In this document: positions 1-64,000 of the stretch, in pieces | Layout of the letters: the number at the start of each line of letters is the position of its first letter | Numbering within the stretch: position 1 is the stretch's first letter | From: Tetramitus jugosus | Lineage: Eukaryota > Protista > Heterolobosea | DNA: 64,000 nucleotides | Assembly (NCBI GenBank): GCA_937625935.1 | Contig: OW569371.1 | Coordinates: 415,055 to 479,054 of the forward strand | Direction of reading: 5' to 3' | Translations under genes and position numbers: made by a program | Notes under the pieces: generated by a model | Database searches by the model: none | Told to the model about the DNA's origin: nothing | The model's input: the letters and a program-made list of their open reading frames with translations, nothing else

Positions 1-1045
1 TGTCTCGGTTACCCCAACCAGCAATGAACGGATTTCCTACGGATTCACAAGGGAACAGAGCCTTGATTGTTGAGAGCGTACTAATCTTAAACTCTGATGG
101 CATTTTCCATCTCATGATTGAATGACCTGACACTGGAGGCGTAATCACTGGACCCAGAGGCAAGGAAGACTCCCCTTGTCTCAACTTGTGAATGTAATCA
201 ATGGTTGAAGTTTCTTGATTGATGGATCGAACAGTCAGATACAATATCTTGTAACCCTTGCGTGTCATACCCTGAAACAAGTTGGCCACTCCGGGATGAG
301 CATACTGTCGACCTAGCCAACGTGTCGCGATTTGACCCTTGATGTCGCTCTTTGTAATGGTTCCATCAATATCACTCACAACAATCTTGTCCGCGTGTGA
401 CCAGAGAAACAAGCGACCACGTACGACTTCCCTTGTAACAGAGTTTACAAATTCGACCGTGTTCACCTCCTTGCTCCAATCAATTCTCTGAAGTAGCTCT
501 TGTGGAGGAGTTGTAAATTCTGAACCAAGCTTCTTCTGCATCGTATCAATATTTCTCTTCCAACGCTGCTTCACTCGTTGTTTGGTATGATTCGATACGT
601 TTCTGTAGTAACGAGAGTAGCGATTGCCACTGTTCAGTGCCGCTTGATCCTCATTTCCCATCATTGCAGAACATCCCAGTGAAATCTCTGACAACAAGGG
701 TTTTGTTCGATGAGCTGCTGTTTTTACGGCTCGACCAAATCGATCGTGTAGTGCTCCGTGAGTTCTAGGTGAAGGAGCCGGAGAAATTGAGCCATCTGAA
801 GAAAAGTCATTCGGAGTGACGACTTCAAGTACCTTCTTTTCAAACAATGCAAAGTGTTCATTGGCATGAAGTACCAATCGAGTTTCATCTTCCTCTCTAA
901 AATGAACGAGTTGACCGTTAATGTACACTTGGATGTAGTGCTTGTCTTCCTTGGAATCGGGCACATTCTCAAAGTACACAAAAAATGGAGAGCATCTGGG
1001 TTCACCATTCGGTTGCTTTACTACTATGATATCAATACAGGGCAT
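1..1045 (-). CDS. Lipin/Pah1-type phosphatidate phosphatase (NLIP + LNS2); 3' end runs off the window
   Basis: Not in the ORF track because there is no stop inside the window. Manual translation from ATG 1045 is open to base 1. It reads MPCIDIIVVKQPNGEPRCSPFFVYF (lipin N-domain), then IVVSDIDGTITKSD (HAD DxDxT motif), GYKILYLT and NPFIAGWGNRD. Confidence 0.9.
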   Translation of the reverse strand, partial: MPCIDIIVVKQPNGEPRCSPFFVYFENVPDSKEDKHYIQVYINGQLVHFREEDETRLVLHANEHFALFEKKVLEVVTPNDFSSDGSISPAPSPRTHGALHDRFGRAVKTAAHRTKPLLSEISLGCSAMMGNEDQAALNSGNRYSRYYRNVSNHTKQRVKQRWKRNIDTMQKKLGSEFTTPPQELLQRIDWSKEVNTVEFVNSVTREVVRGRLFLWSHADKIVVSDIDGTITKSDIKGQIATRWLGRQYAHPGVANLFQGMTRKGYKILYLTVRSINQETSTIDYIHKLRQGESSLPLGPVITPPVSGHSIMRWKMPSEFKISTLSTIKALFPCESVGNPFIAGWGNRD

Positions 1046-27866: not shown

Positions 27867-30800
27867 ATGACTATTACTGAAGCTAAAAACTCCATTAACA
27901 ATATCCCAATCGCAATTGTTGGTATTGCATGTCGATTGCCAGGAGAGGCACAAGACGTTGAAAAGTTTTGGAATCTCTTAATGCACGAGAATGAGACCTG
28001 CTCTGCCATTCCAGCAGACAGATTCAACATTGAGAGATACTGCGCCAATGGCCAAGACAAATTGCATCCAATCAGTAAGACTGCTTATGGTCACTTCCTC
28101 AAGGATCCAATCGATCAATTCGATGCCGAGTTCTTTGGTATTTCAAGAAAGGAGGCTGCCTCCATGGATCCACAACACAGACTCCTCATGGAGTCCACTT
28201 ATCATGCCTTTGAAGATGCTGGTTTGCCTCTCGAAGTTGTTGCGTATGTTTTTTTTTTGAAAAACCACTTTTTTTTAACTGTTGTTCTGAATAAGCTCAA
28301 TTTGTTTACTAACAAACCAATTTCATTTGTCATTTTCAACTTGTGATAGTGGAACGAACACTGCTGTTTATGTAGGTCAAATGCAAAGTCATTACAATTC
28401 TTTGAGGACGAAGGAGCCTCTAGACACAAACAACCAATACAGTTACATGAACACCTCCAGTGCATACAGTGCTGCTCGTTTATCGTACTACTTCAATTTG
28501 ATTGGTCCATCCTTCCAATTGGATACCATGTGCTCTTCTTCTATTGTTGCCCTCCATTTGGCAGCTCAGAGCTTAAAGGTTGGAGAGTGTGATATGGCTA
28601 TTGCTGCTGGTGCCAATTTGAATTTTGATTTCCAAGATTTCGTTCGTATGTCCATTATTGGAGCTGCTGCCAAGGACGGAAGATCCAAGGCTTTCAGCGC
28701 CAATGCTGATGGTTATGCAAAGGGTGAAGGTATTGGTGTCGTTGTCTTGAAGAGACTTGATCAAGCCATTAAAGACAATGATAGAATCCATGCTGTCATT
28801 CGGGGATCTGGTGTGAACCACGACGGAAAGCGAAAGAATGGTATCACCATTACGAGTTCGATTGGTCAAAAGGACCTATTCGAGAGAGTTTACAAGGACT
28901 CCAGCATTGACCCTGCTGCTGTGACATACTTGGAGAGTCACACAACCGGTACTCTTGTTGGTGATCCTATTGAAGCCTCTGCTCTTTCCTCTTTCTTTGG
29001 AAAGGCTAGAAGAGAGGCTGGTATTGAAGGACCTGTTAGAATCGGTTCCGTCAAGGCAAACATTGGTCATACTGAAGCCATGTCTGGTATTGCTTCATTG
29101 GCCAAGGTGCTTATGATGCTGAAGCACAAACAAATTCCTCCAACACTCTTGTTTGACAAGTTGAACCCAAAGATCAACTTTGAGGAGTTGAACTTGAAGG
29201 TTGTAACTTCCCCAGAAGCTCTTCCATCCAAGTCATTGATTGGATTGAGCAGCTTCGGTATGGGTGGTACAAACGGTCACATTATTGTCGAGAGTTATGA
29301 GCGCTCTAGCGCCAGAGCAGCACCTCAAGCTGGATACTTGTTGCTCTTGTCAGCCAGAAGATCTGAAAAGGTTCTTATTGAAATTGCAAAGAACTTGAAG
29401 GAATTCGTTAATACTAGTATTGACAATGGAGCTGATCCAACTGATTTGTTCACTGATATCTGCCATACATATGCTGTGAAGCGGACACATCACGAAGTTA
29501 GAGCAGCAATTGCTTTCACTGATCTCGAAGATTTTAATGCCAAGATTGATGCTTTCGTCAACGCTGACAGAAAGGTTGGTGTACAATCTGCCACTGTTCC
29601 AGAGACTGAAGGTAACCAAAAACAAAAGATGGTCTTTGTGTTCTCTGGTCAAGGTCCACAATGGTTTGCTATGGGTCGCCACCTTCTTGCGTCTGAACCC
29701 GTCTTCCGTGCTTCTATGCATCGTATTGACAAAGAGTTGTCAAAGTACGTCGATTGGTCATTGGTTGATGAGTTGACTCAAAAGGATGATACTACCTCTA
29801 GAATCAACCAAACAGATTTTGCTCAACCTGGAATTTTTGCCATCCAAGTTTCTTTGTACGAACTATTGAAGTCATTGTCAATTGTTCCAGACATTGTTGT
29901 AGGTCACTCTGTTGGTGAAGTTGCTTCCGCATATGTTGCTGGTGCTTTGACTTTCGAGGATGCAATCCTTGTCATCTATGAGAGATCCAGACTTCAACAC
30001 AAGTGTTCATTTATCAACAAGGGTAAGATGCTTGCTGTTAACATTAGCGAAAGCGCCGCCAAGAAACTTATTGTTGGATTGGAAGATAAGGTTTCAGTTG
30101 CTGCTGTCAACAGTGCTACCTCTGTCACATTGAGTGGTGACGAAGAAGCATTGAAGCAAGTTGTAGAAATCATCAATAGCGATTCCGCTCTTTCCAAGGC
30201 CTCCAAGGTTTACTTGAGAACCAGTGCTGCATTCCACAGCGTTCACATGGACCCTATCAAGGATGAATTGCTTGAAGGATTGGCAAATATCAAGCCGCAA
30301 AAAACAACTATTCCTTTGTTCTCAACCGTTACAGGACAAAAGATCTCTGGTCTTGAGGTTGATGGAGAATACTGGTGGAACAATGTGAGAGGTGCTGTGT
30401 TGTTTGATGAGGCTATCAAGAATATTATGGATAGATACAATGCTTCATCTCCTTTGAAATATTGGATCGAATTGGCTCCTCATCCAGTGTTGAGCTCTTT
30501 CATTAAGGGTATTGTTGGTCAATACCAATCTGATGCTCAAGTGGTCCCTACACTGATCAGAAAGGAAAATGAGAATGTCTTGTTGAAGAACACTTTGGGT
30601 TCACTTTACATCTATGGTTACAAGTCCATTGATTTGAAGAGAATTTACTCTGCCGGTAAGCTCATCTCTGTTCCATCTTATCCATTCCAAAAGACCAAGT
30701 ATTGGATGGAAACATCAGAATCTTTGGAAGAAAGAACTGCAGCACCAACAAAGCAACACCCACTGCTCGGTAGCAGAGTGGTTCCTTCTCAAGGACCTCA

Positions 30801-33800
30801 ACCAATTTGGAGAAACCACATCTCCTTGTCGAATCCTAAACAAGAATACTTGAAGGATCACGTTGTACAAAAGTCGATCATTTATCCATTTGCTGGATTT
30901 ATTGAGAATATTGTGGCGGCCATCTGCGAATACCATGAAGTCAATCCTCTTGTCGGTAATTTGGCAACTGTGATTGCACTAAAGGATTTCCATGTTGGAA
31001 CAGCCATGCCATTGAAGCCTGATGATACTAGAATTGTTGAAACAATTCTATCACCTAACTCCAAGACTTTCCAAATTGTCAGCAAATTGAAGCCAGCTGA
31101 TACTGAACTTTTGACCACAATGGATAAGAAGGGAGACTTCTCAAGCAAGTGGGTCACTCATGCTCATGGTTCTTATGAAATCATCAAGAAGGAGTTCTTC
31201 ACTGAGGAGAATGTCGCTATCACACCTGAAATGTCTAAGGATGCTATGTATGATGCATTGTACAACAGAGGCTTGATGTATGGTCCTGCTTTCCAAGGTA
31301 TTTCCACAACAGAAGCTTCCAATGGAGAGATTTGGGGAACAATTGATGCTCCTGCAGAGATTGCCTCTGATGTAGCCAAGTATATTATTCACCCATCTCT
31401 TGTTGATTCATGTTTCCAAGCTGTACTAACTGGTATCATTGGCAAGGAGACAATGATTCCTGTTCACATGAAGCAAATGAACATCTTCCTCAGACCAGGA
31501 GTAATTGGTTCCATTGATCAACAAATTATTACCACTGCTCAATTCCACGAACGTGTCATGGGTAATACTGCAGCTAATCGTCAATTGTTAGACTTGAAGA
31601 TCTTCAACAAAGAAGAAAGAGGTCTTGTTTCTGCTATTACCATCGAAGAATTCGCGGTTCAGGAATTGGCCAGCGAAGATGATGACAAGGATGCAGGACT
31701 GATCCTTGTTAGAAGCTGGGAAGAGCTCAATAGAATTCCTTATGCTAATGTTCCTGAAACTGTGGATCTGTTGAAGACTGTTGACCAAGCTGAATCTGAG
31801 GACTTGAAGTCTAGCCCAGTTGTATTTGAATTGTTGTCAAAGATCATTGCTCACTTCTGCCTCAATGCTCTTGTGTCTATTAACGGATCAACTGATTTGT
31901 CATTGGATGCCATTCTTGCCAAGGTACCATCAAGCTCACATGCAATCATTCAAAAGTTCTTTGAGATTATCGAGGTCAATAGCCTTGAGTTCTCCAATGT
32001 ACAGAGCTTGCATAACATTCAATTTGAGGCATCTCAAATTGTTAAGCAATATCCATTCTTCCAACCATTTGTTGAGTTGGTTATCACTGTCGGTGTGGAG
32101 ATGCCTGAGATTCTTCTTGGTCACTCCTTGAAGAGTTCTGTTGAGAGCATCACTGGTAGAATCTCTGCCATTATCGCTCAAGCTGCTGTTCCATGTGTTG
32201 AATCTATTTTGACTTCTACCACATCCCCTCTCAGAATTCTTGAGGTCAATGCTGGAGAAGGACATTTGGCTAATCTTGTTGCTCATAACTTGACCAGCAA
32301 TGTTGAGTACATTTTGACGGATCCATCTGAGGATAAGGTCTTGGCAGCTGAGGATGCTTTGTCCAAGTTGACCACCAGAATTACCTACACAGCTTTCAAT
32401 CCTGCAGAGAAGCCACCTGCTCAAATCAAATCTGAGTCCTTCGATGTGATTATCTCGTCTGGATCTCAAAATGTTCAAAACTTGAAGAGTCTTCTTTCTC
32501 CAAAGGGTGTTTTGCTGGTTGTAGAACAAAGTGCTTGCCAAGCAATGGATGTCATTAACCAATTGATCTCAACTTCCACTCCATCAGAGATTTCAGTTCA
32601 AGAGTCCAAGCCCCTATCAGGCATTGCTACCTTGTCCGTCATCAGAAACTCTGGAAACCACGAGAGACAGAAGTGGTTGGTGTTTGCTGACAAGAATGGC
32701 TTTGCAAACTCTCTTGTTGAGCAGTTGTGTGAAAAGTACAACCAAGTAAGTGAAGATTTCATTGTGGTGACACCTGGATCTTCTTATGCAAAGAACTCCA
32801 ACAATGTCACTATCGATATTACCAATGTTGAACACTATCACCAATTGCTTGCTGATGTGCCTGCAGTGAATAGAGTAATCTTCTCATGGGCCATGGATAT
32901 TCCAACCTTGTCAGAGGATCCAGAGTTGATGTTTGTCAGCCAAGAAAATGTTTGCTACAGCATTACTTGCTCTATTCAAGCATTCGAAAAGGTTCACATC
33001 GTTCCTGAATTCTTTGTCGTCACAAGTGGCGCACAGGCTTTAGATTCATCCAATGTATTGAACATTAATCAGTCTGTTGTTGTCGGTTTCATGCACAGCG
33101 CTGCTGGCGATTTCTTCAACACTCAATCCAAATTGATTGATGTCGATCCTGCTTTGAGTACTGCAATTAATGCAGAGCAAACTGCTGAAGAAATTATGTT
33201 GAACAACAGAAACTCCTTCAATGAGATTCACTTGAGTGGAAACAAGAGAATGGCCTTGTACTACAACAAGAAGGCACCAAATAGTGTTGACTACCGTAAC
33301 TTTAGAACTATTGTACCAGCAAATGATGAGACTAATTTCAGAGTTGCTGTTCCTAAGACAAGATTGTTGAGAGATGTTTTCTTTGAAGTCATCCCTAGAG
33401 TGGCACCAAAGAGTGATGAAGTTGAAGTGAAGATTAAGGCTTCAGCCATTAACTTCAAGGATATCTTGAAGATTAGAGGGCTTCATCCAATCACTGTCAA
33501 ATGTAATGAAGATGCTAAGAAGAAGGAACTTGACTACTGCAACTTGATTGGTTTAGAAGCTGCTGGTGTTGTCACAAAGGTTGGCGATAATGTCACTAAT
33601 GTCAAGCCAGGTGATAGAGTTGTTTACTATAGTGTTAATGATGCTTTGTTCAAATCTTATAGCATTCAACCTGCCAAGTTGGTCGTTAAGATTCCAGACA
33701 ATATGACATTCGAACAAGCTTCGGCTGTTCCTATCGTTTTTATGACTGCATTCTACTGCTTGTTTGAAAAGGCAAAGTTGAAGAAGGGACAATCTGTTCT

Positions 33801-36486
33801 CATTCATTGCGCTTCTGGTGGTGTTGGTCTTGCTGCCATTCAACTCTGTCAAAACGCTGGAGCCACTGTATTCGCTACAGCTGGTACTGACAAGAAGAGA
33901 CAGTTCTTGAAGGAAGTTGTTGGTGTTGAACACGTTTTTAGCAGCAGAAATGCTAGATTCTACGAAGAGATCAAGAAGATTACCAATGGACGTGGTGTTG
34001 ATATGATTATCAATTCTATCAGCGGAGAGATGTTGGTCAAGTCCGTTGACTTGTTGGCCACATCTGGTAGCTTCTTTGAACTCGGAAAGCGTGACATCTT
34101 TGATAATCGTCATATCAACTTGTACAAGCTAAGAAACAACTGTGCATTCCATGTTATCGATTTAGAGTTGGCTTTGTTGCATGGTGATTCGAGCGAAGGT
34201 GTCATCATGTTGCAAGAAGCCATGAGACAATACGCTGAGAATCTGATTAAACCTATCCAACTGCAAAGCTTCGATATTGCTGATATGAAGGAAGCCTTCG
34301 AGTTGCATCAAAAGGCAACCAGCATTGGTAAGTTGGTTTTGAACTTCGATTCTCAAAAGCCAATTCAAATCGTGTCGCATGAAGACAGCCATCCTACCAA
34401 CATCAGAAATGGTACTTATTTAATTACGGGAGGAACTGGTGGTGTTGGTTTGACCTTCGCCAAGTGGTTGATCCAACATAAGAATATTAAGAGAATTGTT
34501 TTGACATCCAGAAGACAGCCTGCAAAGGATGTTCAACAACAAATTGATGCTCTGAATGTTGGTGGAGTCAGTGTGGATGTTCTCACCGCTGATGTTGCCA
34601 ACCTTGCTCAAATTAAGAGTGTCATTGACAATATTGAAGCCAATAGTGCTCCTTTGAGAGGTGTAATCCATGGTGCTGCTGTTATTGAGGATGCTCTTGC
34701 ATCTAACATGAGCTTCGAATTGCTAGCTAAAGTTTTGAGACCAAAGATCAGAGGTGCTGTTTACTTGCATCACCTAACTCAACACTTGCCATTAGACTTC
34801 TTCTACATGACTGCATCTATGAGTAATGTTATGGCTCTCAACGGTCAAACCCATTACAACGCAGCAAACAATTTCTTGGATTGTTTGGCTGTTTTGAGAA
34901 GAAGACAAGGACTCAGTGCCATGTCTGCCAGTTTGACCGCCATCTCTGGTGCTGGTTTCGTCACAAGAAACAAGACTGTTGAGAGATTGTTGGGTGCTGT
35001 CGGTGTTGTTCCTGTTCACGTTGAAGAAATTGTCGAGTTGATGGAAGTGTTGAACAACAACGAATTTGTCACTCCTATCATTTCTCATAAGAACTTTGTT
35101 GCTGACTTCAAGGGAACTTATGTTCCAAGTCCACTTGAGAGATTGTTCTCCTCCGATGAATCAAACAAGGGAGAGAGTACCGAAGAAGAAAACAGCGCTG
35201 CAAACTCTGCTGATAACGTCTTGAATGAAATCCACAACTTTGTTTCCCAAGTGCTTGGTACAACTGTTGAGAACATTGCAGTTGATAAGTCATTGAATCA
35301 ACTTGGATTCGATTCATTGATGTCTGTTGAAATCAGAAATTGGATGGCCAGCAAGTACAAGAAGAACTTGCCATTGGTTGAATTGTCCATTGAGACTGTT
35401 ACCACTTTGGCTCAAAAGATTCTCAATGCTTCGAACAAGAAGCAATCTGGAGATGCCAGCTCTGGTTCAACCGATGCTTCTAACAACAGCGAAAATAGTC
35501 ACAGCACTCATGTTGATAACCAAAGCATGAACAGAATTAATCCACTGCATACTACTGAGAAGCCAACAATGAGACTAATTTGCTTCCCATACATGGGTGG
35601 CTCTTCCAATGACTTCAAAGACTGGCCAAAGCAATTGCCAAGTGATATTGAAGTTTATGGTGTAGATTACTTGTTGAATATCACTGATAAGCAAAGCCTC
35701 TATGATTGGAGTACTTTGATGGAACTATTGCTCGAAGAATTGAAACCTTTGAGCTCTGTTCCATTTGCATTCTATGGTCACAGTTTGGGAGCTTCAGTTT
35801 CATTCGAATTCACTCGTTATTTGAATGCTCATAACCAACCACTCCCATGCCACTTGTTCATTGGTGCTCAGGTTTCTCCAGGAATTGTAACTGTTTCTTC
35901 AGAACTCTACCAACACATGTTGAAGAGTGATGATGAGGTTATCGCTCAAAAGGTAATTGAGTATGACTTGTTGCCTGGCTATTTGATGAAGATTGAATCC
36001 TCAGAAATGGAAGAGAAATTAGAATCAGTCAAGAAACTCATTGCAATGCCAAAGTTGATTGCTGAATTCAAGCTCCACGCACACTATGCACACAATGATG
36101 ATGAATTCGGTGATAATCAAGTCAATGTTCCATTAACCGTCTACAATGGAACCAATGATAAGTTGACATCTAATGCCGATATGAACTTGTGGGCAATGCA
36201 AACCAACAACAAGTTTGAATGTCACCAAATTGAAGGTAGTCACTTGTTCATCAATGAGACTGCTGGCCTTCAAACAGTGTTGAACTTAATCACTCGTTGC
36301 TTGAACACACACAAACAAACTGAACAACGAACTGAAGTCGTTGCAAGTTCTCCAAGACAATTGAGACATGTTGGCAGTGGTGAGGAATTGAAACTGATTG
36401 CTGAACTGACAAAGGAACTCGAAAGAGAAAGAAATGCCAGAAAGCAACTCGAAGAAAGATTGAGAAACGCTGAAGCCAACCATTAA
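27867..36486 (+). CDS. Highly reducing type I polyketide synthase KS-AT-DH-(pseudo)MT-ER-KR-ACP-TE, 2837 aa; intron 28244-28349
   Basis: GTATGT...TACTAAC...GATAG intron joins ORFs 27867.. and 28327.. in frame (VVA|GTNTAVYVG). KS DTMCSSS / HTTGT / NIGHTE; AT GHSVG and AFHS; DH HVVQKSIIYP; MT-like ILEVNAGEG; ER IHCASGGVG; KR ITGGTGGVG and YNAAN; ACP GFDSL; TE GHSLG...GSHLF. Confidence 0.96.
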
Positions 36487-53333: not shown

Positions 53334-54296
53334 TTAACTTGGGTCGAAAAAGCGATACTCCTCGAGGCCATTGTCAAAAAAGCAGAATTGCTCTAAAAAG
53401 GTTTCAATTTGACTGGTCGATGGTTTGTTAGGATCATCTTCATCAATCTGAAGTAGACTTAAAAGTCGCTTCTCGGTTTCCTTGTTTGCTGCAAATGCCG
53501 AGGTATCATTGCAAGCCAAAAAATAAAACATATAATCAAATGAAATTTGGAATGCAAATATAGGCTCTCCGTTTCCACCAAAAGGACAGATGATATTATG
53601 ATAATTCATTCTCACAGAATGTTCCCGAAACTGGTGATCCAAAAAAGTAGCTGAAACGGAAAAGATGTCGTGACGCTCGCCCCTGGAATCATGAGTGCTG
53701 TCCTTTTGAATCAAATTGTAAATGATACTATCATGCATGAATGCAATGTACTTGTTAACAACATCACTTTTTGTTAAATTAATATCGTACAACTCTACCA
53801 GAAGTTTCATTTGATTACAAGCTAGTTCAATCTCACCTGTACTATGTTTGTCAGACTTGATAAATTTTCGCGTAGCATTCAGGAGTCGAATGGCATAACT
53901 ATTGTCCCTCTCAAAGCGATCAATCACAAGTTTTTTCCAATACTCTTTCTGATGAATATCCGGTTTGGTCACCTCTGTCTTGCTCCTCTTGCTTTTTGAT
54001 TGCTTTGTGGAACAGTTTGTTCTCTTTCCAGATGCCTTGGTCTTCTTCTTTTCTACTTCTTCGTCATCCTCATTCTCATTTTGTCTTATGATCCGTTTGT
54101 CTGCAGTTTCAAGTCTTGTAAGGAACTCATTCATGGATGGCCAGTTGAGTCTTGCCACAGTTTTCCACGTCAAGAGTGTTTCTGTTGTCGAGTGCCAGTC
54201 CTTGTTCAAACGAGTAGCTCTGGAGTAAATGTCACCAATAGGTAAGAATTGCAAGATGATTTGATGAATGTCTCGTGGCAGTTGTGGGATGGTCAT
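53334..54296 (-). CDS. F-box protein
   Basis: Likely start MTIPQLPRDIHQIILQFLPIGDI...RLNKDW (54296), within ORF 53334..54425. Confidence 0.8.
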   Translation of the reverse strand: MTIPQLPRDIHQIILQFLPIGDIYSRATRLNKDWHSTTETLLTWKTVARLNWPSMNEFLTRLETADKRIIRQNENEDDEEVEKKKTKASGKRTNCSTKQSKSKRSKTEVTKPDIHQKEYWKKLVIDRFERDNSYAIRLLNATRKFIKSDKHSTGEIELACNQMKLLVELYDINLTKSDVVNKYIAFMHDSIIYNLIQKDSTHDSRGERHDIFSVSATFLDHQFREHSVRMNYHNIICPFGGNGEPIFAFQISFDYMFYFLACNDTSAFAANKETEKRLLSLLQIDEDDPNKPSTSQIETFLEQFCFFDNGLEEYRFFDPS

Positions 54297-56080
54297 GGCA
54301 CAGTTTTTGTTGAATGAAGAAGTTTCCTGAGGTTCCAGATTTTTCAGGATTTGTTTTTTCAGACCAATGCGCCACACAATTTTCCATCTTTGGAAATTGC
54401 GCGTGACAAAGAAGGAGGTCAACAAGTTGAGGAAAAGGTAGGTCAGAGTTGTGAGAGTGGATTGTTCGCTTGTGTGAAGGGAAAGTAGAATGCAGTGTGT
54501 GAACTCAAGAATGTTTTATTTCTTTGAATTGTTCATTCTCGACAAGGTACACATCGCACCCAAAACATTAGTAGTCATCGCATGATCGTAGACATGACAT
54601 CTTGCCTAAATAGAACAACAGAGGCAGCACCAGCATGATCAAGTCACATAGTCAAGCACCTTATTGTATACGTATGACCGGTATGGGAGCGTCCAGATAT
54701 TATTTCTTACGCCCCCCTAGGGAGGGGGTCTGATAAATTTATTCAAATATTTATTCATAGGGGGTCTCTTGATCCCAATCCTAGTAGGAGAATTAATGTA
54801 ACGTTCGAATTTACAGGAAAATGAATTATTCAAATTTATTCAAAACAGGCAGGGAGAGGGGTCAGAGGTGAATATAATATCTATCCTCAGTTAAATTTTT
54901 CATCCGTACTGCATAACATTGCAGTTTTGTTCATTAAATCCGCATATGCCAACTAACTACAACTGATAGAAGTATCAAGATGACGGGACAATAATACAAC
55001 TAGTGTCGATAAGAATTTCCATTAATACCATGAAAGAACTGGAAAAGATATCACAGACCTTCAAAAACTGATCCCATTATTATAAATCCTGTTGATCCTT
55101 CTTTAGACTTAAATTAATTCGACAAATGAGTAAACGATCTCTGAGCTAAATCAATAAGTGTGACTCAATTGACCATAATTTTCTTCTTTTGAACCACTGA
55201 TCGGAAAAATATTTACATAAACATTAAAAAATATTTCCAAGAACAACAATGATGCTGTCATTGAGTACCACTCGGGCAAAGGAAAACCGGTTAAATAATG
55301 TGTTGGAAAATGAATCTAACTGGATCACAACGTGACATTATTATCAGCGATGAGTGACAAAATATCGAAGAATAAGATTCTCTTCATTTGCTATCATAGA
55401 ACAAAAGAGATCTTTCCACACGAAATTCGAAATTAGTGGAATTGTGACTGAATCCAGCACCCAGCTCAAATATTTGGCTTCAACCTGACGAAGAGTTTGA
55501 ATCTCAAACTATGACCGTTGATCATATGTATCCCTTATGTACCACTTCAAATTGTTGGATAAACTGTTTTGGGCATAATCGAGGAAGTTTCCTCTGATAT
55601 ATATTAGTTCCTCTCTGGGGTGAATTATGAGTTAATGTTCGTTGATGAGGTTTAGAATTGATTGAAATCTACTTTTTTCTTTTTCTTTGTTCACATTTAG
55701 GTCCCCATGCAGACTTTAATTGTGGATACATTGAGGTTTTCCTATTTTCGCGCGCAACACAAATTCAAAGTAAAGTAAAATTTGTGCCGAGCGAAGAAGA
55801 AAAGAACATTTATTTCACGTAGTGTAGACAGAGAATAGTATTCATTTATTAGAATAAAGATACTGTAGTTCAGAGGAAGCCTACACTTACTATTCGGCCA
55901 GCGAAACTAAGGACAATTCAATCGTCATTGGTGCTGCCTCAAAATCATCTTGCGAATTAAAAGACAACACCTTCGAACCCTCTTGATAAATCAGAGAGAA
56001 TGTCGAAATAGCAACATTGTTTTCTTCAATGAATTGCTTTCAGTTCAAAGTACGATCTTACCTTTCTACGAAAATGCATT

Positions 56081-56977
56081 TCACAGGTAGGAAGTGAAAA
56101 TAAACACGACCTTTTCTTTTTGACCAACACCTCCTTTGGTTTCGATGATAGCATCCTGGACCGACCTTAGAACTTCTTGATACAATTTGACAGTTTCTGC
56201 CATCTCACTTTGATTCCATGCATAATTAATCCAGTTCCTTATTTGCTCTGCACTGATGTTTGCATTATGTAGTACATTATTGGCATACCTAACATTGTTG
56301 TTGAGATGTACCGTGTTCTCTTGAAGAGTTTCACTTGCTTCAGAAAGAGTTGATGGTGAACATTCGGTGCTTATTGTCAAGATATGATCGTCCTCCGTAT
56401 ACCTAATCCAAACCGCACTCAGCTCGTCATCGTCTTCAAGAATTTCCACAGAATCAACATTACAAGGATAAGTGATTCCATGAATCTTGATGCCATCCTC
56501 CGTACCAAGTTTGATCAGTCTAGCTCTGGCCACGCCTTTGTGATTCTTGGTAAGAATAACCGTATCACCCTCTGTTGACCCATTGTTTTCCTCCACCAAC
56601 TTCTTCCTGAAATCCGAAGCCTTTGATCTGAGGGCTCGAGCATAGTCTTCGGATGTTCTAGTGGAGGGGAAGTTAGGATTCTTATCCTTCATGTACTTAC
56701 CGATGTTGTATGTGTGGTGCAACAGTACAAACTCAATCATTGCAATGAGCTCATTAGGTTTGTATGATTGCCCTCTTGTTTTTGCATTTCTTTCGTTGAG
56801 TTGCAGGACTGTCAGCCACACGCTTTTGACCTTTCTGACTACTATCCATCTAACAGTACTGTGGTAGTATGATTCTGTTTTGTTGAATTGTGATGTAGGA
56901 TTGTTGTAAACTACATTCAATAAAATGCTGTACAATAATTGTAAAATACATTCAACAAATATTTGGCTGAAAAACAC
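56081..56977 (-). CDS. Subtelomeric orphan ORF (gene or pseudogene), true start unresolved
   Basis: 298 open codons with protein-like composition. A further coding-like segment (QFIEENNVAISTFSLIYQEGSKVLSFNSQDDFEAA...*) lies downstream to 55890 in another frame. Confidence 0.5.
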   Translation of the reverse strand: MFFSQIFVECILQLLYSILLNVVYNNPTSQFNKTESYYHSTVRWIVVRKVKSVWLTVLQLNERNAKTRGQSYKPNELIAMIEFVLLHHTYNIGKYMKDKNPNFPSTRTSEDYARALRSKASDFRKKLVEENNGSTEGDTVILTKNHKGVARARLIKLGTEDGIKIHGITYPCNVDSVEILEDDDELSAVWIRYTEDDHILTISTECSPSTLSEASETLQENTVHLNNNVRYANNVLHNANISAEQIRNWINYAWNQSEMAETVKLYQEVLRSVQDAIIETKGGVGQKEKVVFIFTSYL

Positions 56978-57163
56978 AATGATAGCAATTCAACAGCTAT
57001 CAGTGCTCTTGTTACACCTTCCTCCTCCTCCTCCTGTTCCACTCACTGTATTGTCCTCTCCCATGACCATCGATATGGTCATTCAAATCCAGTTGGTCCA
57101 ACTTCAAAAGCAGTACAAGTCGCTCATACTGCAGCTTGAGGACATGGAGGGATGTGACCCCAT

Positions 57164-57293
57164 GGGGGGTTTGGTTTTGGGTTTGGTTTTGGTTTTGGAC
57201 TTTATATTCGTTTCTGAACCGACAAAATATTGCCTTTTATGGAAGGGGAGTGTCTAAATATGGTTTTGGGAGGTTTTTGAGTTTGGGTTTGGT
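57164..57293 (+). repeat. Internal degenerate telomere-like tract
   Basis: GGGGGGTTTGGTTTTGGGTTTGGTTTTGGTTTTGG (57164-57198) and TTTGGGTTTGGT (57282-57293), same strand polarity as the terminal TTTGGG array. Confidence 0.75.
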
Positions 57294-57469
57294 GTTTATG
57301 TCATAAGTCCAGACCCAACCCAAAGGACTTTTCAGTACAACTTTTACTCATCTCAACGAGCTCTAACAGGATTTAACAGGATTAAAACTGTATCGTCTCG
57401 AAGAGACGATCGCTCCCTGTTGTAATTAACAGATTTTAACTGCAACAGGATTAAAACTGCAGCACCGAA

Positions 57470-57506
57470 CTATCATTGCACTGGCAGCGCTAGCTGACAG
57501 TGCTGA
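57470..57506. repeat. Conserved 37-bp palindromic site, copy A (downstream of YR-2)
   Basis: CTATCATTGCACTGGCAGCGCTAGCTGACAGTGCTGA; arms GCACTGGCAGC / GCTGACAGTGC (10/11 complementary) around a 4-nt centre; 36/37 identical to 60433-60469. Confidence 0.9.
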
Positions 57507-57550
57507 CAGAAAAAATATGAGTGATTATTTATTCTACTGCTCTTCAATAT

Positions 57551-59719
57551 TTATTCGTCCTCTTCTCCAGAGAGCTCAATAACAAGAGAATTTTCACTAT
57601 CACTCTCTGACTCATACTGTATATGAGCGAACTTTACCTTGAGCTTTTCCTTTTCCTTGGTAAATTTATCTTCAACTTTCTGTATTTGGAGTTCTCTTTT
57701 TCTCTTGAGATTGTTCAACATCAGCTTAAAATTACCATAGGACAAATTTGTGTCATCAACTGAAGTCTTGTTTTTCCCCTTGGACTGTTTATGAGAGGAT
57801 AACAATGTTTCCAAATTCTTTTCATAGTATTTTTCAACAAGGTTTGTAGCAGAATAAGCTTCCTCTATATTTCTGATTCTCTCATAGAGTGCTTTCTTCA
57901 TCTTACTATCAATCTCCTGTTTCTTTTCCTTGACCAAAGCTCGATACTGAAGATCTTTTTTGAACTTATCCTCAACTTGATACCTATTATCTCTGATCAT
58001 TGTTGTCCAGAACTTTGAGAAAGCAATACCAGTATTTTTTGAAGCTGCACCTACTGAACGATCATGAACTTCCTTCGTCATTGCTTTGTCTAATTTTGGA
58101 TTAGATGATCTGAATTGCTCTTTCATCTGCTTTGGTGGATTCAACCTTCTAACCAGAGGAAACCATTTCTGAACATTTGTAGTGGTATCACCCTTAATTA
58201 TCAGATTCATCTCTTTCTCATCGGTAATATGACAATTTGCAACTGATGGTTCAGAGAGCTCATCACCACACAAATATCCCTTGTTAGTAGCCAAAGAGAC
58301 AACAACAGCCATAGCATGTTCACCTTCATCTCCTTCTTGAAAGTGATTAATAGCAGTAAAGTGATTTGTTACCCATCGATCATAAGGTTTCAAGAATTCA
58401 ATACTTTTCCAGCCAACAAATTTGATCAATGTTTGAAGTGTTCTCTCATCATGCATTCCCTTGTTTCTGATAGTATCAACCAACAAGGTACTAACAACTA
58501 GACCACTTCTACAAGATCTTGTTGATATAGTCTTCTTCAAAACTCTTCTGGAATGGTTCTTCATTGCATTGCTCATTGCCTTATTGTTCATGGATTCAAA
58601 TTCTTGGCCAATATTGCAAAATACAGGTCTATCACCCCTGTGTTCTTTGAGGTTAAAATTACCTGAAATAATGCATTGAGCAGCAGAACCAGCTTGAAAC
58701 AGACCTCTACAATCTGCCAGATAAATCAACAGAGCAACATTTGGACATTTCTTCAGATTAAGAAATCCTGGCAATGTTTGATCCCAAAATTGATCAGACA
58801 ATCTCTTTTCTTTGATGACTTTCATAGTGAGTGTGATACAAACCTTATCATTCACCATGATTTTTTCCCAAGTCAAGTGTCTGAGTTTCATCGCATTAAG
58901 TGATACTCCTCTCAAACCTCTTGCTCTTGAAACAGCTAACAATGCATTAAGCCTTGATCCTTCTTCAGTAAGCAAATTACAATTGTTGCGTAATTTGATC
59001 CAATCAGGATTCAACAATGGTTCTACTTTGAAAGTGTTATGACCAAACTTTCTCAACAGAGACCTAAGCATTGCTTGAATATCTTCTTGTTCCTGCTTTC
59101 TGAAGTCTGGACTCTTCTTTGTAAGATGAAGATAGCTCAACAGACCATAACAGAAAGTACTGGAAATAGTAGTAAATGAATACTCCTTGCTTACTCTACT
59201 CCAATACAGGAACATAAGGAAAGTCATCTTCTGAAGTGGATAAGGAAATGGCTGAATAGACTCAAAGTCTGAAAACTTTTCACTCATAGTTGAGAGGAAA
59301 GTGAAATAGTCTCTCAGCATATTGAAACAGCTTCACACTATTCTTTGCGTATGAAGCTTGATCCTTTGCCACTTCAACTGAGAATGATGCCTGTGCCAAA
59401 TTTGTTGCATCCTCAATATCTGGAAATGGGATATCAGCTAACAAATCCTCTTGCTCCCTCTCATTTACCATGCTACGAATAGGTGTGAACATCAAATCTG
59501 ATACTCTTCGAGTAGAGTTCTGAGAGACGTTCACAAAGTTAAGATCCTCATCTGAGAGGAGTCTTTGAACTTCGGATTGAAACTCAGACCTTTGAAACTC
59601 TTGACTTAAATCAAAAGCTTCTTCAGTCTCTTCAAAATCGAAGTGATCGGGCAGATCCTTTTTTGAAGTTGTTCCATTGCATAGGCTTTGAATGAATTCT
59701 GTGGATTTGTACTTGACAT
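57551..59719 (-). pseudogene. Tyrosine recombinase YR-2 (DIRS/Crypton-like); 5' region broken by two frameshifts, catalytic ORF 57551..59320 intact
   Basis: RARGLR (R), KVIKEK (K), STRSCRSG (HxxR position), FVGWKS (W), LKPYDR (Y). Upstream frames, including 59280..59534, align with the N-terminus of YR-1 (NSTRRVSDLMF vs NSSRSIRDLEF; YAKNSVKLFQYAER vs YAPATVNLFIFAER). The frameshifts may be real or assembly errors. Confidence 0.8.
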
Positions 59720-60167
59720 CTACAACACAGATTATGAGTGCTCATTCTGGTAAGAGCAAGCAAGAACTTGTTTGATTCTATTGCTCAAGTTCGATTACGT
59801 TTTGACTTCTATGCGAGAGACTATCAAGTAGATACCAGTATACTAATGGCTAGTTGACTAGCAGCCGGGACCATTACAACAACGACAAAGTCTTTCGATA
59901 ATGGCCACTGAGTGTGAACCGGTGGCATACGAGGTACGCACTTACATCATGATAAAGGTCTCAAATAAACGAAGCAGCAACGTTACGAACGAGAGAAAAT
60001 GACCAACAAGTCCTTGCAGCCTCACCGAGGCACATAAGATCAGGAGAGTTAGTACTATGAGCAACACATTACAAATGAAAATAAAATAAAAACCTTGCCT
60101 TTTGGTAGTATCAGAAATAGTAGTTGTTGATTTGTTTGTTTGTTTGTTGTTAGTTGAAGTTGTCAAA

Positions 60168-60195
60168 TTTGTCGGTTGGCGCTCTGCTTTTATAG
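60168..60195 (-). promoter_or_regulatory. Putative promoter motif upstream of YR-2 (TATAAAA...CCAACCGACAAA)
   Basis: Minus strand CTATAAAAGCAGAGCGCCAACCGACAAA followed by an AAC-rich leader; same arrangement as 62687-62716. Confidence 0.55.
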
Positions 60196-60341
60196 ACACA
60201 GGTAGATTCCGAATCAGTTATTTTGGGTAGTTCAAATAAAATTTCCGGAGATTCTGTTCCGGTTGAATCTTTTTTATTTGAAGTTCTCGGTGGGGGTTTT
60301 ATTCTTTGCCTGTACATTTCTGGAAGGTGCATCTATATACT

Positions 60342-60366
60342 GGGGGGGTTGGGGTTGGGTTTGGGG
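60342..60366 (+). repeat. Internal degenerate telomere-like G-tract
   Basis: GGGGGGGTTGGGGTTGGGTTTGGGG; four G-runs (G4-competent), telomere polarity, 66 bp from palindromic site B. Confidence 0.75.
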
Positions 60367-60432
60367 ATACATCCTGGATTCCCCAACCTAAGGAGAGCTA
60401 TTTCCTTATATATCATGTTTTTTTTTTGCTAG

Positions 60433-60469
60433 CTATCATTGCACTGGCAGCGTTAGCTGACAGTGCTGA
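60433..60469. repeat. Conserved 37-bp palindromic site, copy B (downstream of YR-1)
   Basis: CTATCATTGCACTGGCAGCGTTAGCTGACAGTGCTGA; the only difference from copy A is in the 4-nt centre (GTTA vs GCTA). Confidence 0.9.
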
Positions 60470-60493
60470 ACATCTATATGAAAATTTGAGCTT

Positions 60494-62623
60494 TTATTCA
60501 CTATCGCTGGAGAGAACAATCTCCTCAATATCATACTCCTCTTCACTCTCAGGTTCTACCACTCCCTTATATTGCTCATCCAATTCTCTCTTGAGTCTCT
60601 GGTATTTTACCTTGATTGCTTCAATTTCGTCCTTCTCCTTCTTTGCAAGGACACCTACCTTTCTCTTGTATGTTCCCTCATTCAAAACTAGAGTTGTACT
60701 CAACTTTCCTCTCTTCTTAAATTTCTCTGCCAATTTCTGTGCAACAAATAGTTGAGCTTTCTCATCGGCATAGAACTTTCTTATGAGAGAAGTAGCACCA
60801 TAAACCCTTTCAATTGAGACCTTTCTATCTCTCTTCTTCTCATTAATGTACTGTTGGTCCTTGGCCAACAATATTTTGCACTCAGCAGTTTCCGCCTCTT
60901 TCAAGCAGTTTCTCTTCCAATAGGCAAGCCAAGCAATATCCTTACCACTATCATCATTGATAATTTCATTATCCAAATCAGAATCAAGACTTCTATGATA
61001 ATCCTTGAAGTAATTTGGAGGTTGAAGTCTTCTAGCCTTTGGAGCCCACTTCTTTGGCTTTTCACTATTGCACTCATGATAGATGATAGACTGAATGAGG
61101 TCAACATCAGTAATATGAGCATTATCATCAATAGAAGCTATTGGAACATCCTCATCTAAGAATCCCATATCCTTAGCCAATTGACTCAAAGTCCTAAATG
61201 ATTCAATTCTCTCAGATGGTTCTTGCAATGAATTGATGGATGAGAAATGTTGAGTAATCCATCTATCATAAGGTTTGAGACTCTCCTTATTCTTCCAGTG
61301 AACAAAGGTTGCAAGTGTATCAGCTACCTTGTCATCAAACACTCCATTGTTCTCAATTCTGTTTCCCAACAGACAAGTAACAACCAGACCAGATCTCATT
61401 GATCTTGTAGAGTACCTCTTGTCAATAGTTGCAGAGAGACTCTTAATAGCATTACTCATACTCTTGTTAGTCCAAGTAGTAAACTTTCCATGGGGAGTGA
61501 ACAATGGTTCATCTTGTAGACCAGGATTCAAAGTGAAGTCACCCTTAATCAAACATTCAGCAGCACTACCTTGCTCAAAAACTCCTCTGATATCAGCCAG
61601 GTAAATGAGTAATGAGATGTTTGGACACATCTTCAAGTTGACCCAACCAAGCAAGTTCTGTCTCCACACATTAGCAAGTAAAACCTTGTCCTTGACAATC
61701 TCCATATCGAGACAAAGACGAATCTTGTTGTCAGCAACAATCTTGGTCCAAGTCAAATGTTTCAACTTGACATGTTCAAAAGAATCAGCTCTGAGACCTC
61801 TTGCTCTGCCTTGTGCTAAAACAGCATCCAATCTTGCACCAGAATCAGTTGTTTGATCACATAAGAGTCTTAACTTGACCAAGTCAGGATTCATCAGAGG
61901 TTCAACCTTGAACTTGTCATTTCCAAACTTTCTGAGTAATGCTCTCAAGGTGTTCTTGATATCAATGGTAAATTCAGCTCTCAAATTTCTATCTCTCTTG
62001 GTCTTGTAGAGAAAAGCCAAAAATCCATAACAGAAAGTACTCTGAATGGTAGAGAACTGATAGTTCTTATCAACCTTGAGCCAATAGAGATACATCATCA
62101 AAGTGAGCTTCTTCATTGGATATGGAGTAGGTTGATACTGGAGGAAGTCTGGAAACTTGGAATCCATCTCTTGCAAGAAAGAAAAGTATCTTCTTTCAGC
62201 AAAGATGAACAAATTAACAGTAGCAGGAGCATACTGTGTATTGGAGACATTAGCAGTAACAGTAACTGCAGCCTCATTCAATCTTCCCATTTCACCAAGA
62301 GAATCAAAAGTAACCTGAGGGAACAAATCATCATCAGCTCCACCTCTAAAAGAGTCATTGATGTCAGTGAACTCTAGGTCTCTGATGGATCTTGAACTAT
62401 TGACAGAGTTATTCAACAGAGTCATCTCAGATTCAGCAATTGTTCTTTCGACTCTAGCCTCCAAGTCATCACCTTCATTGAGTTCAGCCAAGTGACCAAG
62501 GTCAAATTCCTCATGATCATCCATTTTTTCAAGATCCTTGAACAGTTGGTCAACAGTTTTCTCAAAGGTAGCATCAGCAGGGCAAGCAGCAGCAGGAATA
62601 GTAACAGCAGTAATAGCAGACAT
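60494..62623 (-). CDS. Tyrosine recombinase YR-1 (DIRS/Crypton-like), intact, 709 aa
   Basis: Core-binding-like region (YAPATVNLF...RYFSFL...PYP...LMMYLYWL...STIQ). Catalytic domain RARGLRAD (R), IVKDK (K), YSTRSMRSG, FVHWKN, LKPYDR (Y). Basic helical C-terminus and acidic tail. No RT/RNase H nearby. Confidence 0.85.
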   Translation of the reverse strand: MSAITAVTIPAAACPADATFEKTVDQLFKDLEKMDDHEEFDLGHLAELNEGDDLEARVERTIAESEMTLLNNSVNSSRSIRDLEFTDINDSFRGGADDDLFPQVTFDSLGEMGRLNEAAVTVTANVSNTQYAPATVNLFIFAERRYFSFLQEMDSKFPDFLQYQPTPYPMKKLTLMMYLYWLKVDKNYQFSTIQSTFCYGFLAFLYKTKRDRNLRAEFTIDIKNTLRALLRKFGNDKFKVEPLMNPDLVKLRLLCDQTTDSGARLDAVLAQGRARGLRADSFEHVKLKHLTWTKIVADNKIRLCLDMEIVKDKVLLANVWRQNLLGWVNLKMCPNISLLIYLADIRGVFEQGSAAECLIKGDFTLNPGLQDEPLFTPHGKFTTWTNKSMSNAIKSLSATIDKRYSTRSMRSGLVVTCLLGNRIENNGVFDDKVADTLATFVHWKNKESLKPYDRWITQHFSSINSLQEPSERIESFRTLSQLAKDMGFLDEDVPIASIDDNAHITDVDLIQSIIYHECNSEKPKKWAPKARRLQPPNYFKDYHRSLDSDLDNEIINDDSGKDIAWLAYWKRNCLKEAETAECKILLAKDQQYINEKKRDRKVSIERVYGATSLIRKFYADEKAQLFVAQKLAEKFKKRGKLSTTLVLNEGTYKRKVGVLAKKEKDEIEAIKVKYQRLKRELDEQYKGVVEPESEEEYDIEEIVLSSDSE

Positions 62624-62686
62624 AGTAACAATATTATTAGTAGTAATAGTAATAGTATAGTGTGTGTTTGTTTTTTGTTGGTGTTT

Positions 62687-62716
62687 TTTGTCGGTTGGTC
62701 GCGAATCATTTTATAG
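62687..62716 (-). promoter_or_regulatory. Putative promoter motif upstream of YR-1 (TATAAAA...CCAACCGACAAA)
   Basis: Minus strand CTATAAAATGATTCGCGACCAACCGACAAA, about 65-95 bp upstream of ATG 62623. Confidence 0.6.
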
Positions 62717-62726
62717 GGCAAAAAAA

Positions 62727-62800
62727 AATCTCGGAAGAATCTCGGAAAGAATCCCGCACGCGATCCCGCAAAAAAAATCCACCGCACGCGGATCCCGCAC
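62727..62800. repeat. Short clustered repeats (AATCTCGGAA x2, ATCCCGCA x3) between YR-1 and the telomere
   Basis: Read directly from the sequence. Confidence 0.6.
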
Positions 62801-63218
62801 GACGAATCATTGAAATATCCCGTGAGGAATCCTAACTGACCTTCAACATTTTTACAGTGAACTGGACGTCGCGACTTGGTAGTATGTTGAAGTTGTGCTT
62901 TTAGAGATATTCAGCGCAGGCAAAAATAGTTAGGATGTATTATAAGATGATTCTCAATAGAACACAATGTTATCTACGTACTCTATTGTAAAGAATGAGA
63001 AAGCAACATAGAATGACGGAGGGTGCAACTCCCGAAAATATTTCGAAGGGCAAAAGAGTATAAAAGTGAATCTCTGATGCACTGATCGAAATAAACCAAC
63101 AAACTCATTAAACATAGATAAAGAAGGTTAATTTTTGAAATCTGGGTGAAAAATAGACAGAGAAATGTGTTGGTAAACTTTTTGAGTTTTTAGGTAGAAA
63201 AAAAAAAATTGAAGTCGA

Positions 63219-64000
63219 TTTGGGTTTGGGTTTGGGTTTGGGTTTGGGTTTGGGTTTGGGTTTGGGTTTGGGTTTGGGTTTGGGTTTGGGTTTGGGTTTG
63301 GGTTTGGGTTTGGGTTTGGGTTTGGGTTTGGGTTTGGGTTTGGGTTTGGGTTTGGGTTTGGGTTTGGGTTTGGGTTTGGGTTTGGGTTTGGGTTTGGGTT
63401 TGGGTTTGGGTTTGGGTTTGGGTTTGGGTTTGGGTTTGGGTTTGGGTTTGGGTTTGGGTTTGGGTTTGGGTTTGGGTTTGGGTTTGGGTTTGGGTTTGGG
63501 TTTGGGTTTGGGTTTGGGTTTGGGTTTGGGTTTGGGTTTGGGTTTGGGTTTGGGTTTGGGTTTGGGTTTGGGTTTGGGTTTGGGTTTGGGTTTGGGTTTG
63601 GGTTTGGGTTTGGGTTTGGGTTTGGGTTTGGGTTTGGGTTTGGGTTTGGGTTTGGGTTTGGGTTTGGGTTTGGGTTTGGGTTTGGGTTTGGGTTTGGGTT
63701 TGGGTTTGGGTTTGGGTTTGGGTTTGGGTTTGGGTTTGGGTTTGGGTTTGGGTTTGGGTTTGGGTTTGGGTTTGGGTTTGGGTTTGGGTTTGGGTTTGGG
63801 TTTGGGTTTGGGTTTGGGTTTGGGTTTGGGTTTGGGTTTGGGTTTGGGTTTGGGTTTGGGTTTGGGTTTGGGTTTGGGTTTGGGTTTGGGTTTGGGTTTG
63901 GGTTTGGGTTTGGGTTTGGGTTTGGGTTTGGGTTTGGGTTTGGGTTTGGGTTTGGGTTTGGGTTTGGGTTTGGGTTTGGGTTGGGTTTGGGTTTGGGTTG
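63219..64000 (+). repeat. Telomere (TTTGGG)n, about 130 units
   Basis: Near-perfect TTTGGG array to the window end, G-rich strand running 5'->3' outward; one TTGGG variant near 63981. Confidence 0.97.

Follow-up and report, generated by a model that had tools for sequence, protein, structure and literature searches.

Two predicted tyrosine recombinase genes beside a telomere

The window analysed here, a 64,000-nucleotide (nt) stretch of Tetramitus jugosus DNA (contig OW569371.1), ends in a telomere. (TTTGGG)130.3 occupies 63219-63999 with 99% matches, and repeat matching places the (TTTGGG)130 feature at 63219..64000 on the plus strand. TTTGGG is the candidate telomere repeat of Naegleria gruberi (PMC3622300). 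Just inside the telomere lie two co-oriented minus-strand tyrosine recombinase (YR) genes, YR-1 and YR-2, both transcribed away from it. We put at about one half the probability that they are copies of an old, low-copy, recombinase-only, Crypton-like family in heterolobosean amoebae that has a Cre/lox-type site and is biased towards subtelomeres. The family likely uses a 37-bp palindrome, found beside each gene, as its own recombination site, and it likely favours chromosome ends.

Each cassette would comprise a promoter, a recombinase, a poly(A) signal and a recombination site, and the placement of a gene beside its own site would keep the cassette autonomous. Two YR protomers would bind the two 11-bp arms of the palindrome, as in Cre/loxP and Flp/FRT, and strand exchange in the spacer via a Holliday junction may move or duplicate site-plus-gene cassettes. 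Alternatively, in the manner of the same two systems, strand exchange may swap the chromosome end beyond the site. Cassettes that land in subtelomeres would be tolerated there, accumulate and degenerate, as YR-1 may have done. We infer binding, cleavage, circles and targeting from Cre and Flp and from the Crypton model (PMC3212892; PMC9977147). Knowledge of eukaryotic YR-only elements is patchy, and their ends are hard to define. To our knowledge, eukaryotic YRs with a long, lox-like site of their own are known mainly from yeast plasmids. With its candidate 37-bp site, a family found in Naegleria, Willaertia and relatives offers a candidate pair of enzyme and substrate. It may yield a new site-specific recombinase for genome engineering, and it may point to a way of subtelomere turnover without reverse transcriptase (RT).

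Structure of the two genes

We compared the window with contigs from other sequencing runs and metagenomes, X1, X3, X4 and X5. The longest X1 contigs match the window exactly, so X1 is possibly the source sample and hence not independent; X4 and X5 are metagenomes of two other studies. X9 is one oligo-dT RNA run under another organism label. Copy number and haplotype calls rest on contig depth, which is a rough guide; depth per haplotype in X1 is 21.

YR-2 (60494..62623, minus strand; delimited by open reading frame (ORF), model and alignment) is intact and encodes 709 amino acids (aa; P0002), with an acidic N-terminal region, a Cre-like core at about 120-470 and a helical, basic C-terminal extension. 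Oligo-dT RNA contigs of X9 span 60523-62647, almost exactly the YR-2 ORF. Of the 14 differences listed between X9 and YR-2, 11 are synonymous where 20% would be expected by chance (P 5e-6). Judged from these substitutions, YR-2 is evidently under purifying selection. Its ends are at two-haplotype depth (45.7 and 37.2), and a second YR-2 haplotype departs from the window sequence left of 60382.

YR-1 (57551..59719, minus strand; delimited by homology to P0009 and by contigs) is frameshifted twice in this haplotype. From the ATG at 59719 the frame is open for 37 codons before a stop, and the alignment with P0009 shifts to another frame near 59660 and again near 59307. The open 3' part, 589 aa long (P0001), contains all catalytic residues. 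Assembly errors are ruled out as the cause because an X1 contig over 58337-60375 has zero differences from the window; the breaks are therefore real in this haplotype. At 59307, further YR-1 copies (X1, X3 and X4) show a 2-nt indel relative to the window. The region upstream of YR-1, 60159-60343, is covered by one X1 contig at the single-haplotype depth of 21, and YR-1 looks single-haplotype. No RNA contigs over YR-1, the palindrome or the intergenic DNA were present among the contigs of one run, which proves no absence.

Both genes are preceded by a promoter-like motif on the minus strand, found by motif search: TATAAAA, 8 nt and CCAACCGACAAA for YR-1 (60168..60194), and TATAAAA, 10 nt and CCAACCGACAAA for YR-2 (62687..62715). 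The combined pattern TATAAAA-N8/10-CCAACCGACAAA gives these two matches and none in 100 shuffles. A probable intron in the 5' untranslated region of YR-1 lies at 59720-60093 (minus strand), with GT near 60093 and AG directly before the ATG; YR-2 appears to have no such intron.

A predicted Cre-like fold

The recombinase domain is not apparent from single-sequence comparison. Pfam returned a weak integrase SAM-like match (E 0.019) for the window YR proteins, and neither Pfam nor single-sequence PDB searches detected a YR domain significantly. Modelling the whole protein gave low confidence (pLDDT 54), and a model of the core was therefore built from 57 sequences (pLDDT 91). Foldseek with the core model found Cre as the best match (E 1.5e-8, TM 0.61), and VIA comparison with Cre gave Z 21.2 with 294 aligned residues and an rmsd (root-mean-square deviation) of 4.2. 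XerH, XerA and the integron integrase came next (Z 16-17; integron integrase 16.4), Ndc10 reached Z 9.5, and protelomerases were far weaker (Z 5.6-7.3). A profile of the 57 homologs also detects Cre (E 4e-4) and aligns the first catalytic Arg; the Trp/Tyr motif is aligned in a second stretch that is not significant. Together, the Foldseek and VIA comparisons bear out the YR fold proposed in a preliminary description of the window, and the proteins have a predicted Cre-like tyrosine recombinase fold with core-binding and catalytic parts.

The catalytic set is R-K-R-R-W-Y, which in YR-2 corresponds to R278, K313, R407, R410, W443 and Y452. Equivalents of R278, K313, R410, W443 and Y452 are present in both window proteins and in most homologs. 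Among the alignment rows with a residue at the position in question, the first R is found in 53 of 55, K in all 49, the second R in 34 of 36, W or H in 33 of 35 and Y in 29 of 31.

ESM Atlas neighbours of the window YRs belong to NDC10_II, DUF3435 and DUF3504/integrase clusters, which is the Crypton/Starship neighbourhood. Like Cryptons (CryptonF/S/A/I and CryptonV), the window units have a single YR ORF as the only mobility gene, no RT or DDE transposase and apparently no long terminal repeats, and their Atlas neighbours are Crypton-derived domains. They differ in departing from the R-H-R-Y tetrad, with Arg in the His slot, and apparently in having a 37-bp palindrome where Cryptons have 4-6 bp terminal direct repeats. 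Unlike CryptonF, the family has no match to the GCR1_C Pfam domain in the window proteins or the homologs scanned. Because both the R-H-R-Y and the GCR1_C comparison failed and the ends are undefined, we assign the family to none of the named Crypton groups, although in its presumed way of working it resembles a Crypton or a Cre/lox cassette. No Crypton appears under Heterolobosea in the host table of PMC3212892.

Other YR systems share individual features with the window genes. As in Cre/loxP of phage P1 and Flp/FRT of the yeast 2-micron plasmid, a gene lies beside an arms-plus-spacer palindrome, and Cre is the best structural match. In P1 and 2-micron the recombinase gene likewise adjoins its site. 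However, identity is 12-13%, and the window YRs have long N- and C-terminal extensions, are chromosomal and subtelomeric, and have several paralogs. Protelomerases (TelA, TelK, ResT) share the YR-superfamily fold, a palindromic site and a chromosome-end context, but their structural match is well below that of Cre, and the end here is an ordinary telomerase-type (TTTGGG)n array. DIRS/Ngaro/VIPER elements and Euplotes Tec are also YR-encoding eukaryotic mobile elements (PMC3212892), whereas no RT/RNase H, gag or DDE partner was found near the window YRs.

A 37-bp palindrome beside each gene

The imperfect palindrome, located by repeat and fold analysis, occurs as site A (57470..57506) and site B (60433..60469). 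As noted in the preliminary description, one copy lies beside each YR gene; the copies are 2963 bp apart and 36 of 37 bases are identical, the one difference falling in the central spacer or loop. They are the only two matches in the window at up to 3 mismatches, against none in 100 shuffles, and their folding z values are -3.9 and -4.1. One reading of the site is a pair of 11-bp arms separated by a 6-bp spacer, a geometry that fits the pattern of 11-13 bp arms plus a 6-8 bp spacer given for YR sites (PMC3212892). On the coding strand, site A lies 21 nt beyond an AATAAA and site B 23 nt beyond another, which overlaps the stop codon. This position beyond AATAAA suggests that the site is probably outside the mRNA. 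We regard sites A and B as candidate YR binding and crossover sites.

The palindrome is kept across loci and strains, as expected of the conserved flanking site that had been proposed. In X1 it occurs in at least five contexts: sites A and B, a contig of 2362 nt that carries a diverged YR-2-like gene, another contig of 444 nt, and two sites in tandem, 26 nt apart. Three of the contexts are beside a YR gene. The site is also present in X4 and X5, and further copies of site B there and in X1 have unrelated flanks, which differ directly from the edges of the site. Similarity between copies breaks at the left edge of the site or within at most 50 nt of it, as in the repeat cut at 57461 and the YR-2 haplotype at 60382.

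The hairpin that the site can form has a two-base bulge on one strand. It is not a listed RNA family, since Rfam gave 0 matches at E <=1 over 54000-63220. A hairpin of this kind raises the alternative of an integron-like system, in which the palindrome, 3' of each gene cassette, would act as an attC-like single-stranded hairpin and the YR would shuffle cassettes into arrays at chromosome ends. The bulge, the variation in the loop, the tandem pair 26 nt apart and the position of the site, always 3' of the gene, are in keeping with it. However, the fold resembles Cre (Z 21.2) more than it does the integron integrase (Z 16.4), each gene has a promoter of its own, and no non-YR cassette was identified. 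We therefore regard an integron-like system as highly improbable.

Divergence between the two units

The preliminary description took the units for two head-to-tail DNA repeats of about 3 kb. They are not: the YR-1 and YR-2 proteins are 40% identical and belong to two old sister subfamilies. A tree was computed for the 36 of 57 aligned rows that fill 230 or more core columns; in it the two genes fall into sister subfamilies (99/98), each with closer relatives in other samples; members of the same subfamily in other samples are 61-64% identical. Over the aligned codons, 880 of 1671 positions are identical, and 26 of 52 four-fold sites are identical against 43% expected. By this count, silent positions are near saturation while the site stays conserved. 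A recent tandem duplication is rejected on the protein identity, the sister subfamilies and the four-fold sites. Outside the genes, only the site, the promoter/leader and a 24-nt tract can be aligned between the units. The tract lies about 270 bp from the palindrome in unit 1 and about 70 bp in unit 2, and the multi-copy repeats in between differ from unit to unit. The order given earlier for each unit, a telomere-like tract, palindrome, YR gene and TATA motif, holds for the YR orientation, the palindrome and the TATA motif; the tracts are real, but tract 2 heads an unrelated repeat.

The 37-bp direct repeat brackets YR-1. No significant terminal inverted repeat was identified around the array: the score of the best candidate, a 25-bp inverted repeat at 57099-57123/62871-62895, is matched in 38 of 200 shuffles. 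We also observed that 57099-57227 is a possible relic of a third, inverted cassette. Here 57099-57123 resembles the YR-2 upstream sequence 62871-62895 in reverse, an alignment not significant by itself; it is followed by a TATA-like stretch and AACCGACAAA on the plus strand, and one X1 contig runs from 57115 into YR-2-like sequence in the opposite orientation.

Telomere-like tracts and the subtelomeric setting

The units include two degenerate telomere-like tracts. Tract 1 (57164..57198, plus strand, by repeat matching) consists of a G run followed by GGGTTTGGTTTT x2.7, and is followed at 57262-57325 by a second degenerate G-rich/C-rich inverted stretch. Tract 2 consists of a G run and TTGGGG/TTTGGG at 60341-60365. 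The two tracts share 21 of 24 bases, and in 1-63200 a level of 18 or more TTTGGG matches per 24 bases is reached in three places only, 57164-57198, 57268-57299 and 60341-60372. Two G-rich/short spacer/C-rich inverted arrangements, 57276-57326 and 60346-60390, resemble a fused or circularised telomere junction; their folding is weakly significant (z -2.1 and -1.5).

The surroundings of these tracts are composite. Tract 1 belongs to a region of which other loci have tandem copies (joints 57326>57185 in X1 and 57296>57169 in X3). Between it and site A lies a multi-copy hairpin-rich repeat, 57330..57461 with an approximate left limit (contigs; fold z -4.8), which at 57420 is represented by 17 contigs in X1 and 36 in X3. 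Loose contig ends accumulate at 57461 (seven in X1, four in X4), where other copies diverge, 9 nt left of site A. Tract 2 heads a two-hairpin repeat of about 80 bp (60341..60427, plus strand) that ends in a T run. An X1 contig over 60346-60394 has a depth of 215.8, against 21 per haplotype, so this repeat is present in roughly ten or more copies, and its left flanks are non-telomeric in the four rows listed (X1, X4 and X5). Nearer the end, the last bin before the telomere rises to a depth of 215 in X1 (preceding bins about 50) and 59015 in X3 (preceding about 5000); an X1 contig stops at 63096, and there is a loose end at 63051. The final 150 bp or so before the telomere thus look multi-copy and are probably common to other loci; from contig depth we place this probable telomere-adjacent shared sequence at 63051..63218, limits approximate. 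YR-2 therefore does not abut the telomere. Because tract 2 lies in a separate repeat, site A abuts a cut repeat and the last 150 bp or so are multi-copy, we place the cassettes in a patchwork subtelomere and not inside telomere repeats.

A link to chromosome ends is suggested by another locus. A metagenome scan for homologs yielded one locus (L001) from 129 candidates, a single short contig; repeats break contigs. Its first 21 nt match (CCTAAA)n at 20 of 21 positions, with no such match on either strand of a 20 kb control. The telomere-like contig start is followed by a divergent Myb gene (76-1005, minus strand; Myb E 1.5e-6, Rap1-type Myb E 4e-5) and by a 30%-identical YR, 1.1 kb in and facing away as in the window. 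The Myb/Rap1-like gene is a candidate telomere-binding targeting partner of this YR homolog. In addition, P0012 (GLGLG..PNPNP) and P0088 (GFGFG) contain peptides that telomere repeats would encode; in the scan for such peptides, made at the amino-acid level, 4 of 95 proteins match, against none in 16101 control residues. The earlier proposal that such YRs lie near chromosome ends thus gains one independent homolog with a telomere-like end and the same orientation.

A model in line with the preliminary description is that of a Crypton-like element that forms a circle and inserts specifically into (TTTGGG)n, with the degenerate tracts as its borders. Position and orientation in the window, the tracts with their 21 of 24 shared bases, unique in 1-63200, L001 and the P0012 and P0088 peptides speak for this model, and there are precedents. 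In endogenous nimaviruses (Majanivirus, Pemonivirus), a YR is associated with insertion at host telomere repeats (PMC10871703), and CryptonV families target microsatellites (cited in PMC8869645). However, none of the seven left flanks of the site that are listed, each 17-30 nt long, is a telomere array, one having a degenerate C-rich stretch. Tract 2 belongs to a separate repeat with non-telomeric flanks; the tract-to-site spacers are unrelated; a multi-copy cap separates YR-2 from the telomere; and at L001 another gene stands between the repeat and the YR. We consider telomere-specific integration unlikely. Its novelty had also been overstated, as YR insertion at telomere repeats is published for nimaviruses and microsatellite targeting is on record for YR-only CryptonV, according to the same two sources. 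Nimaviruses themselves differ from the window units, with genomes of 300-360 kb (pemoniviruses) and clean (TAACC)n flanks (PMC10871703), whereas here we find 3-kb single-gene cassettes with no viral genes and no clean repeat flanks.

Homologs, mobility and domestication

A representative search returned 84 proteins at E <=0.001, many of them fragments. The 12 homologs looked up comprise five Willaertia magna genes, two clusters of Naegleria lovaniensis, one N. gruberi protein, which carries a chromodomain, and four without an organism; all named homologs are heterolobosean, and those of Willaertia and Naegleria are on contigs of 29-784 kb. One N. lovaniensis cluster contains two adjacent locus tags. 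P0072/P0095, near-identical distant YR homologs of N. lovaniensis with adjacent locus tags, are a possible second tandem pair. No relative was found in prokaryote genomes. Nor did the listings of the literature searched, which lay outside subscription journals, Repbase and supplements, show a description of this family or site in Heterolobosea. The family is apparently undescribed and recombinase-only, and may favour chromosome ends.

The genes might instead be leftover integrases of larger elements, such as a Polinton-like virus, a giant virus, or a DIRS/VIPER-type or Starship-like element. YRs are integrases of such elements (PMC10871703, PMC13236599, PMC3212892), and phaeovirus YR cassettes have been described (PMC13236599). 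The Myb-domain neighbour at L001 and an orphan 302-codon frame in the window (56081-56989) would fit. Against this, viral contigs gave no relative for alignment A2, P0021 or P0017 in a close-word search and no match to the 37-bp site; PHROG gave no match for four of five proteins, the fifth reaching E 0.089; and a weak search found no fused YR forms of 1309-3735 aa. A Pfam scan of five ORFs near the end showed no RT, RNase H, capsid, polB or DDE families, in agreement with the preliminary description, and the YR genes have no capsid, packaging ATPase or polB neighbours in the window. The recombinases thus stand alone, as had been proposed, with no larger viral or retroelement context found, and each cassette consists of one gene that has a promoter and a poly(A) signal of its own. 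An origin as leftover integrases is very unlikely.

Several observations weigh against a mobile Crypton-like family. In 34 of the 37 rows with a residue there, both window proteins included, Arg takes the place of the His of H-x-x-R. A 1-nt spacer deletion in one site copy, a member of the tandem pair, suits a hairpin better than a duplex with fixed spacing, and two of the five site contexts have no demonstrated YR gene. No empty site, circle junction or target duplication was present among the joints listed, 15 of 39 and one further; about 50 nt of the same left flank persist in the second YR-2 haplotype, which is thus no clean lox-type empty allele. Both YR genes are present in runs of separate studies and their copy number is low, as would be expected of host genes.

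These last features bring in domestication, with YR-1 and YR-2 as fixed paralogs that have a cellular job, for example in subtelomere rearrangement or DNA binding. The palindrome would then be a shared 3'-end processing signal, a terminator or an autoregulatory hairpin. Ndc10 and DUF3504 proteins, which arose from Cryptons, provide a precedent. Low copy number, recurrence in separate studies, the 61-64% identity of subfamily members elsewhere, the synonymous excess and RNA contigs of YR-2, the spacer indel and the N. gruberi chromodomain are all compatible with a host function. However, domesticated Crypton YRs have lost catalytic residues (PMC3212892), whereas the window YRs keep them. YR-1 is frameshifted and looks single-haplotype, fragments are common among the family members in the protein library, and junctions cluster at the left edge of the site; purifying selection is also expected in a live element. 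We therefore hold domestication to be rather doubtful. Equally tentative is a reading in which a family of vertically inherited, minimal Cre/lox-like cassettes, each a YR gene with its 37-bp site, would use site-specific recombination to build or swap subtelomeres at heterolobosean chromosome ends and might have been co-opted by the host. If true, they would be a DNA-recombinase counterpart of telomeric retroelements.

Neighbouring features

The orphan frame mentioned above lies beside the YR array on the minus strand and encodes 219 aa from its first ATG. It has no Pfam or Atlas match, and structural variants between haplotypes occur nearby. The idea that it is Myb-like, or kin of the L001 Myb gene, was not borne out. 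Further inward, at 54685-54882, is a high-copy element resembling a miniature inverted-repeat transposable element, with many unrelated flanks. Elsewhere, copies terminate in an inverted complement of the element's left end (GGGAGCGTCC), whereas the copy in the window is without its right end. An F-box-like gene (E 0.003) at 53334-54296 on the minus strand is polymorphic and probably multi-copy; polymorphic multi-copy genes are frequent in subtelomeres. At 27867-36486 on the plus strand, the window contains a modular gene resembling a type I polyketide synthase, in which the order KS, AT, DH, ER, KR, ACP, TE was read by eye.

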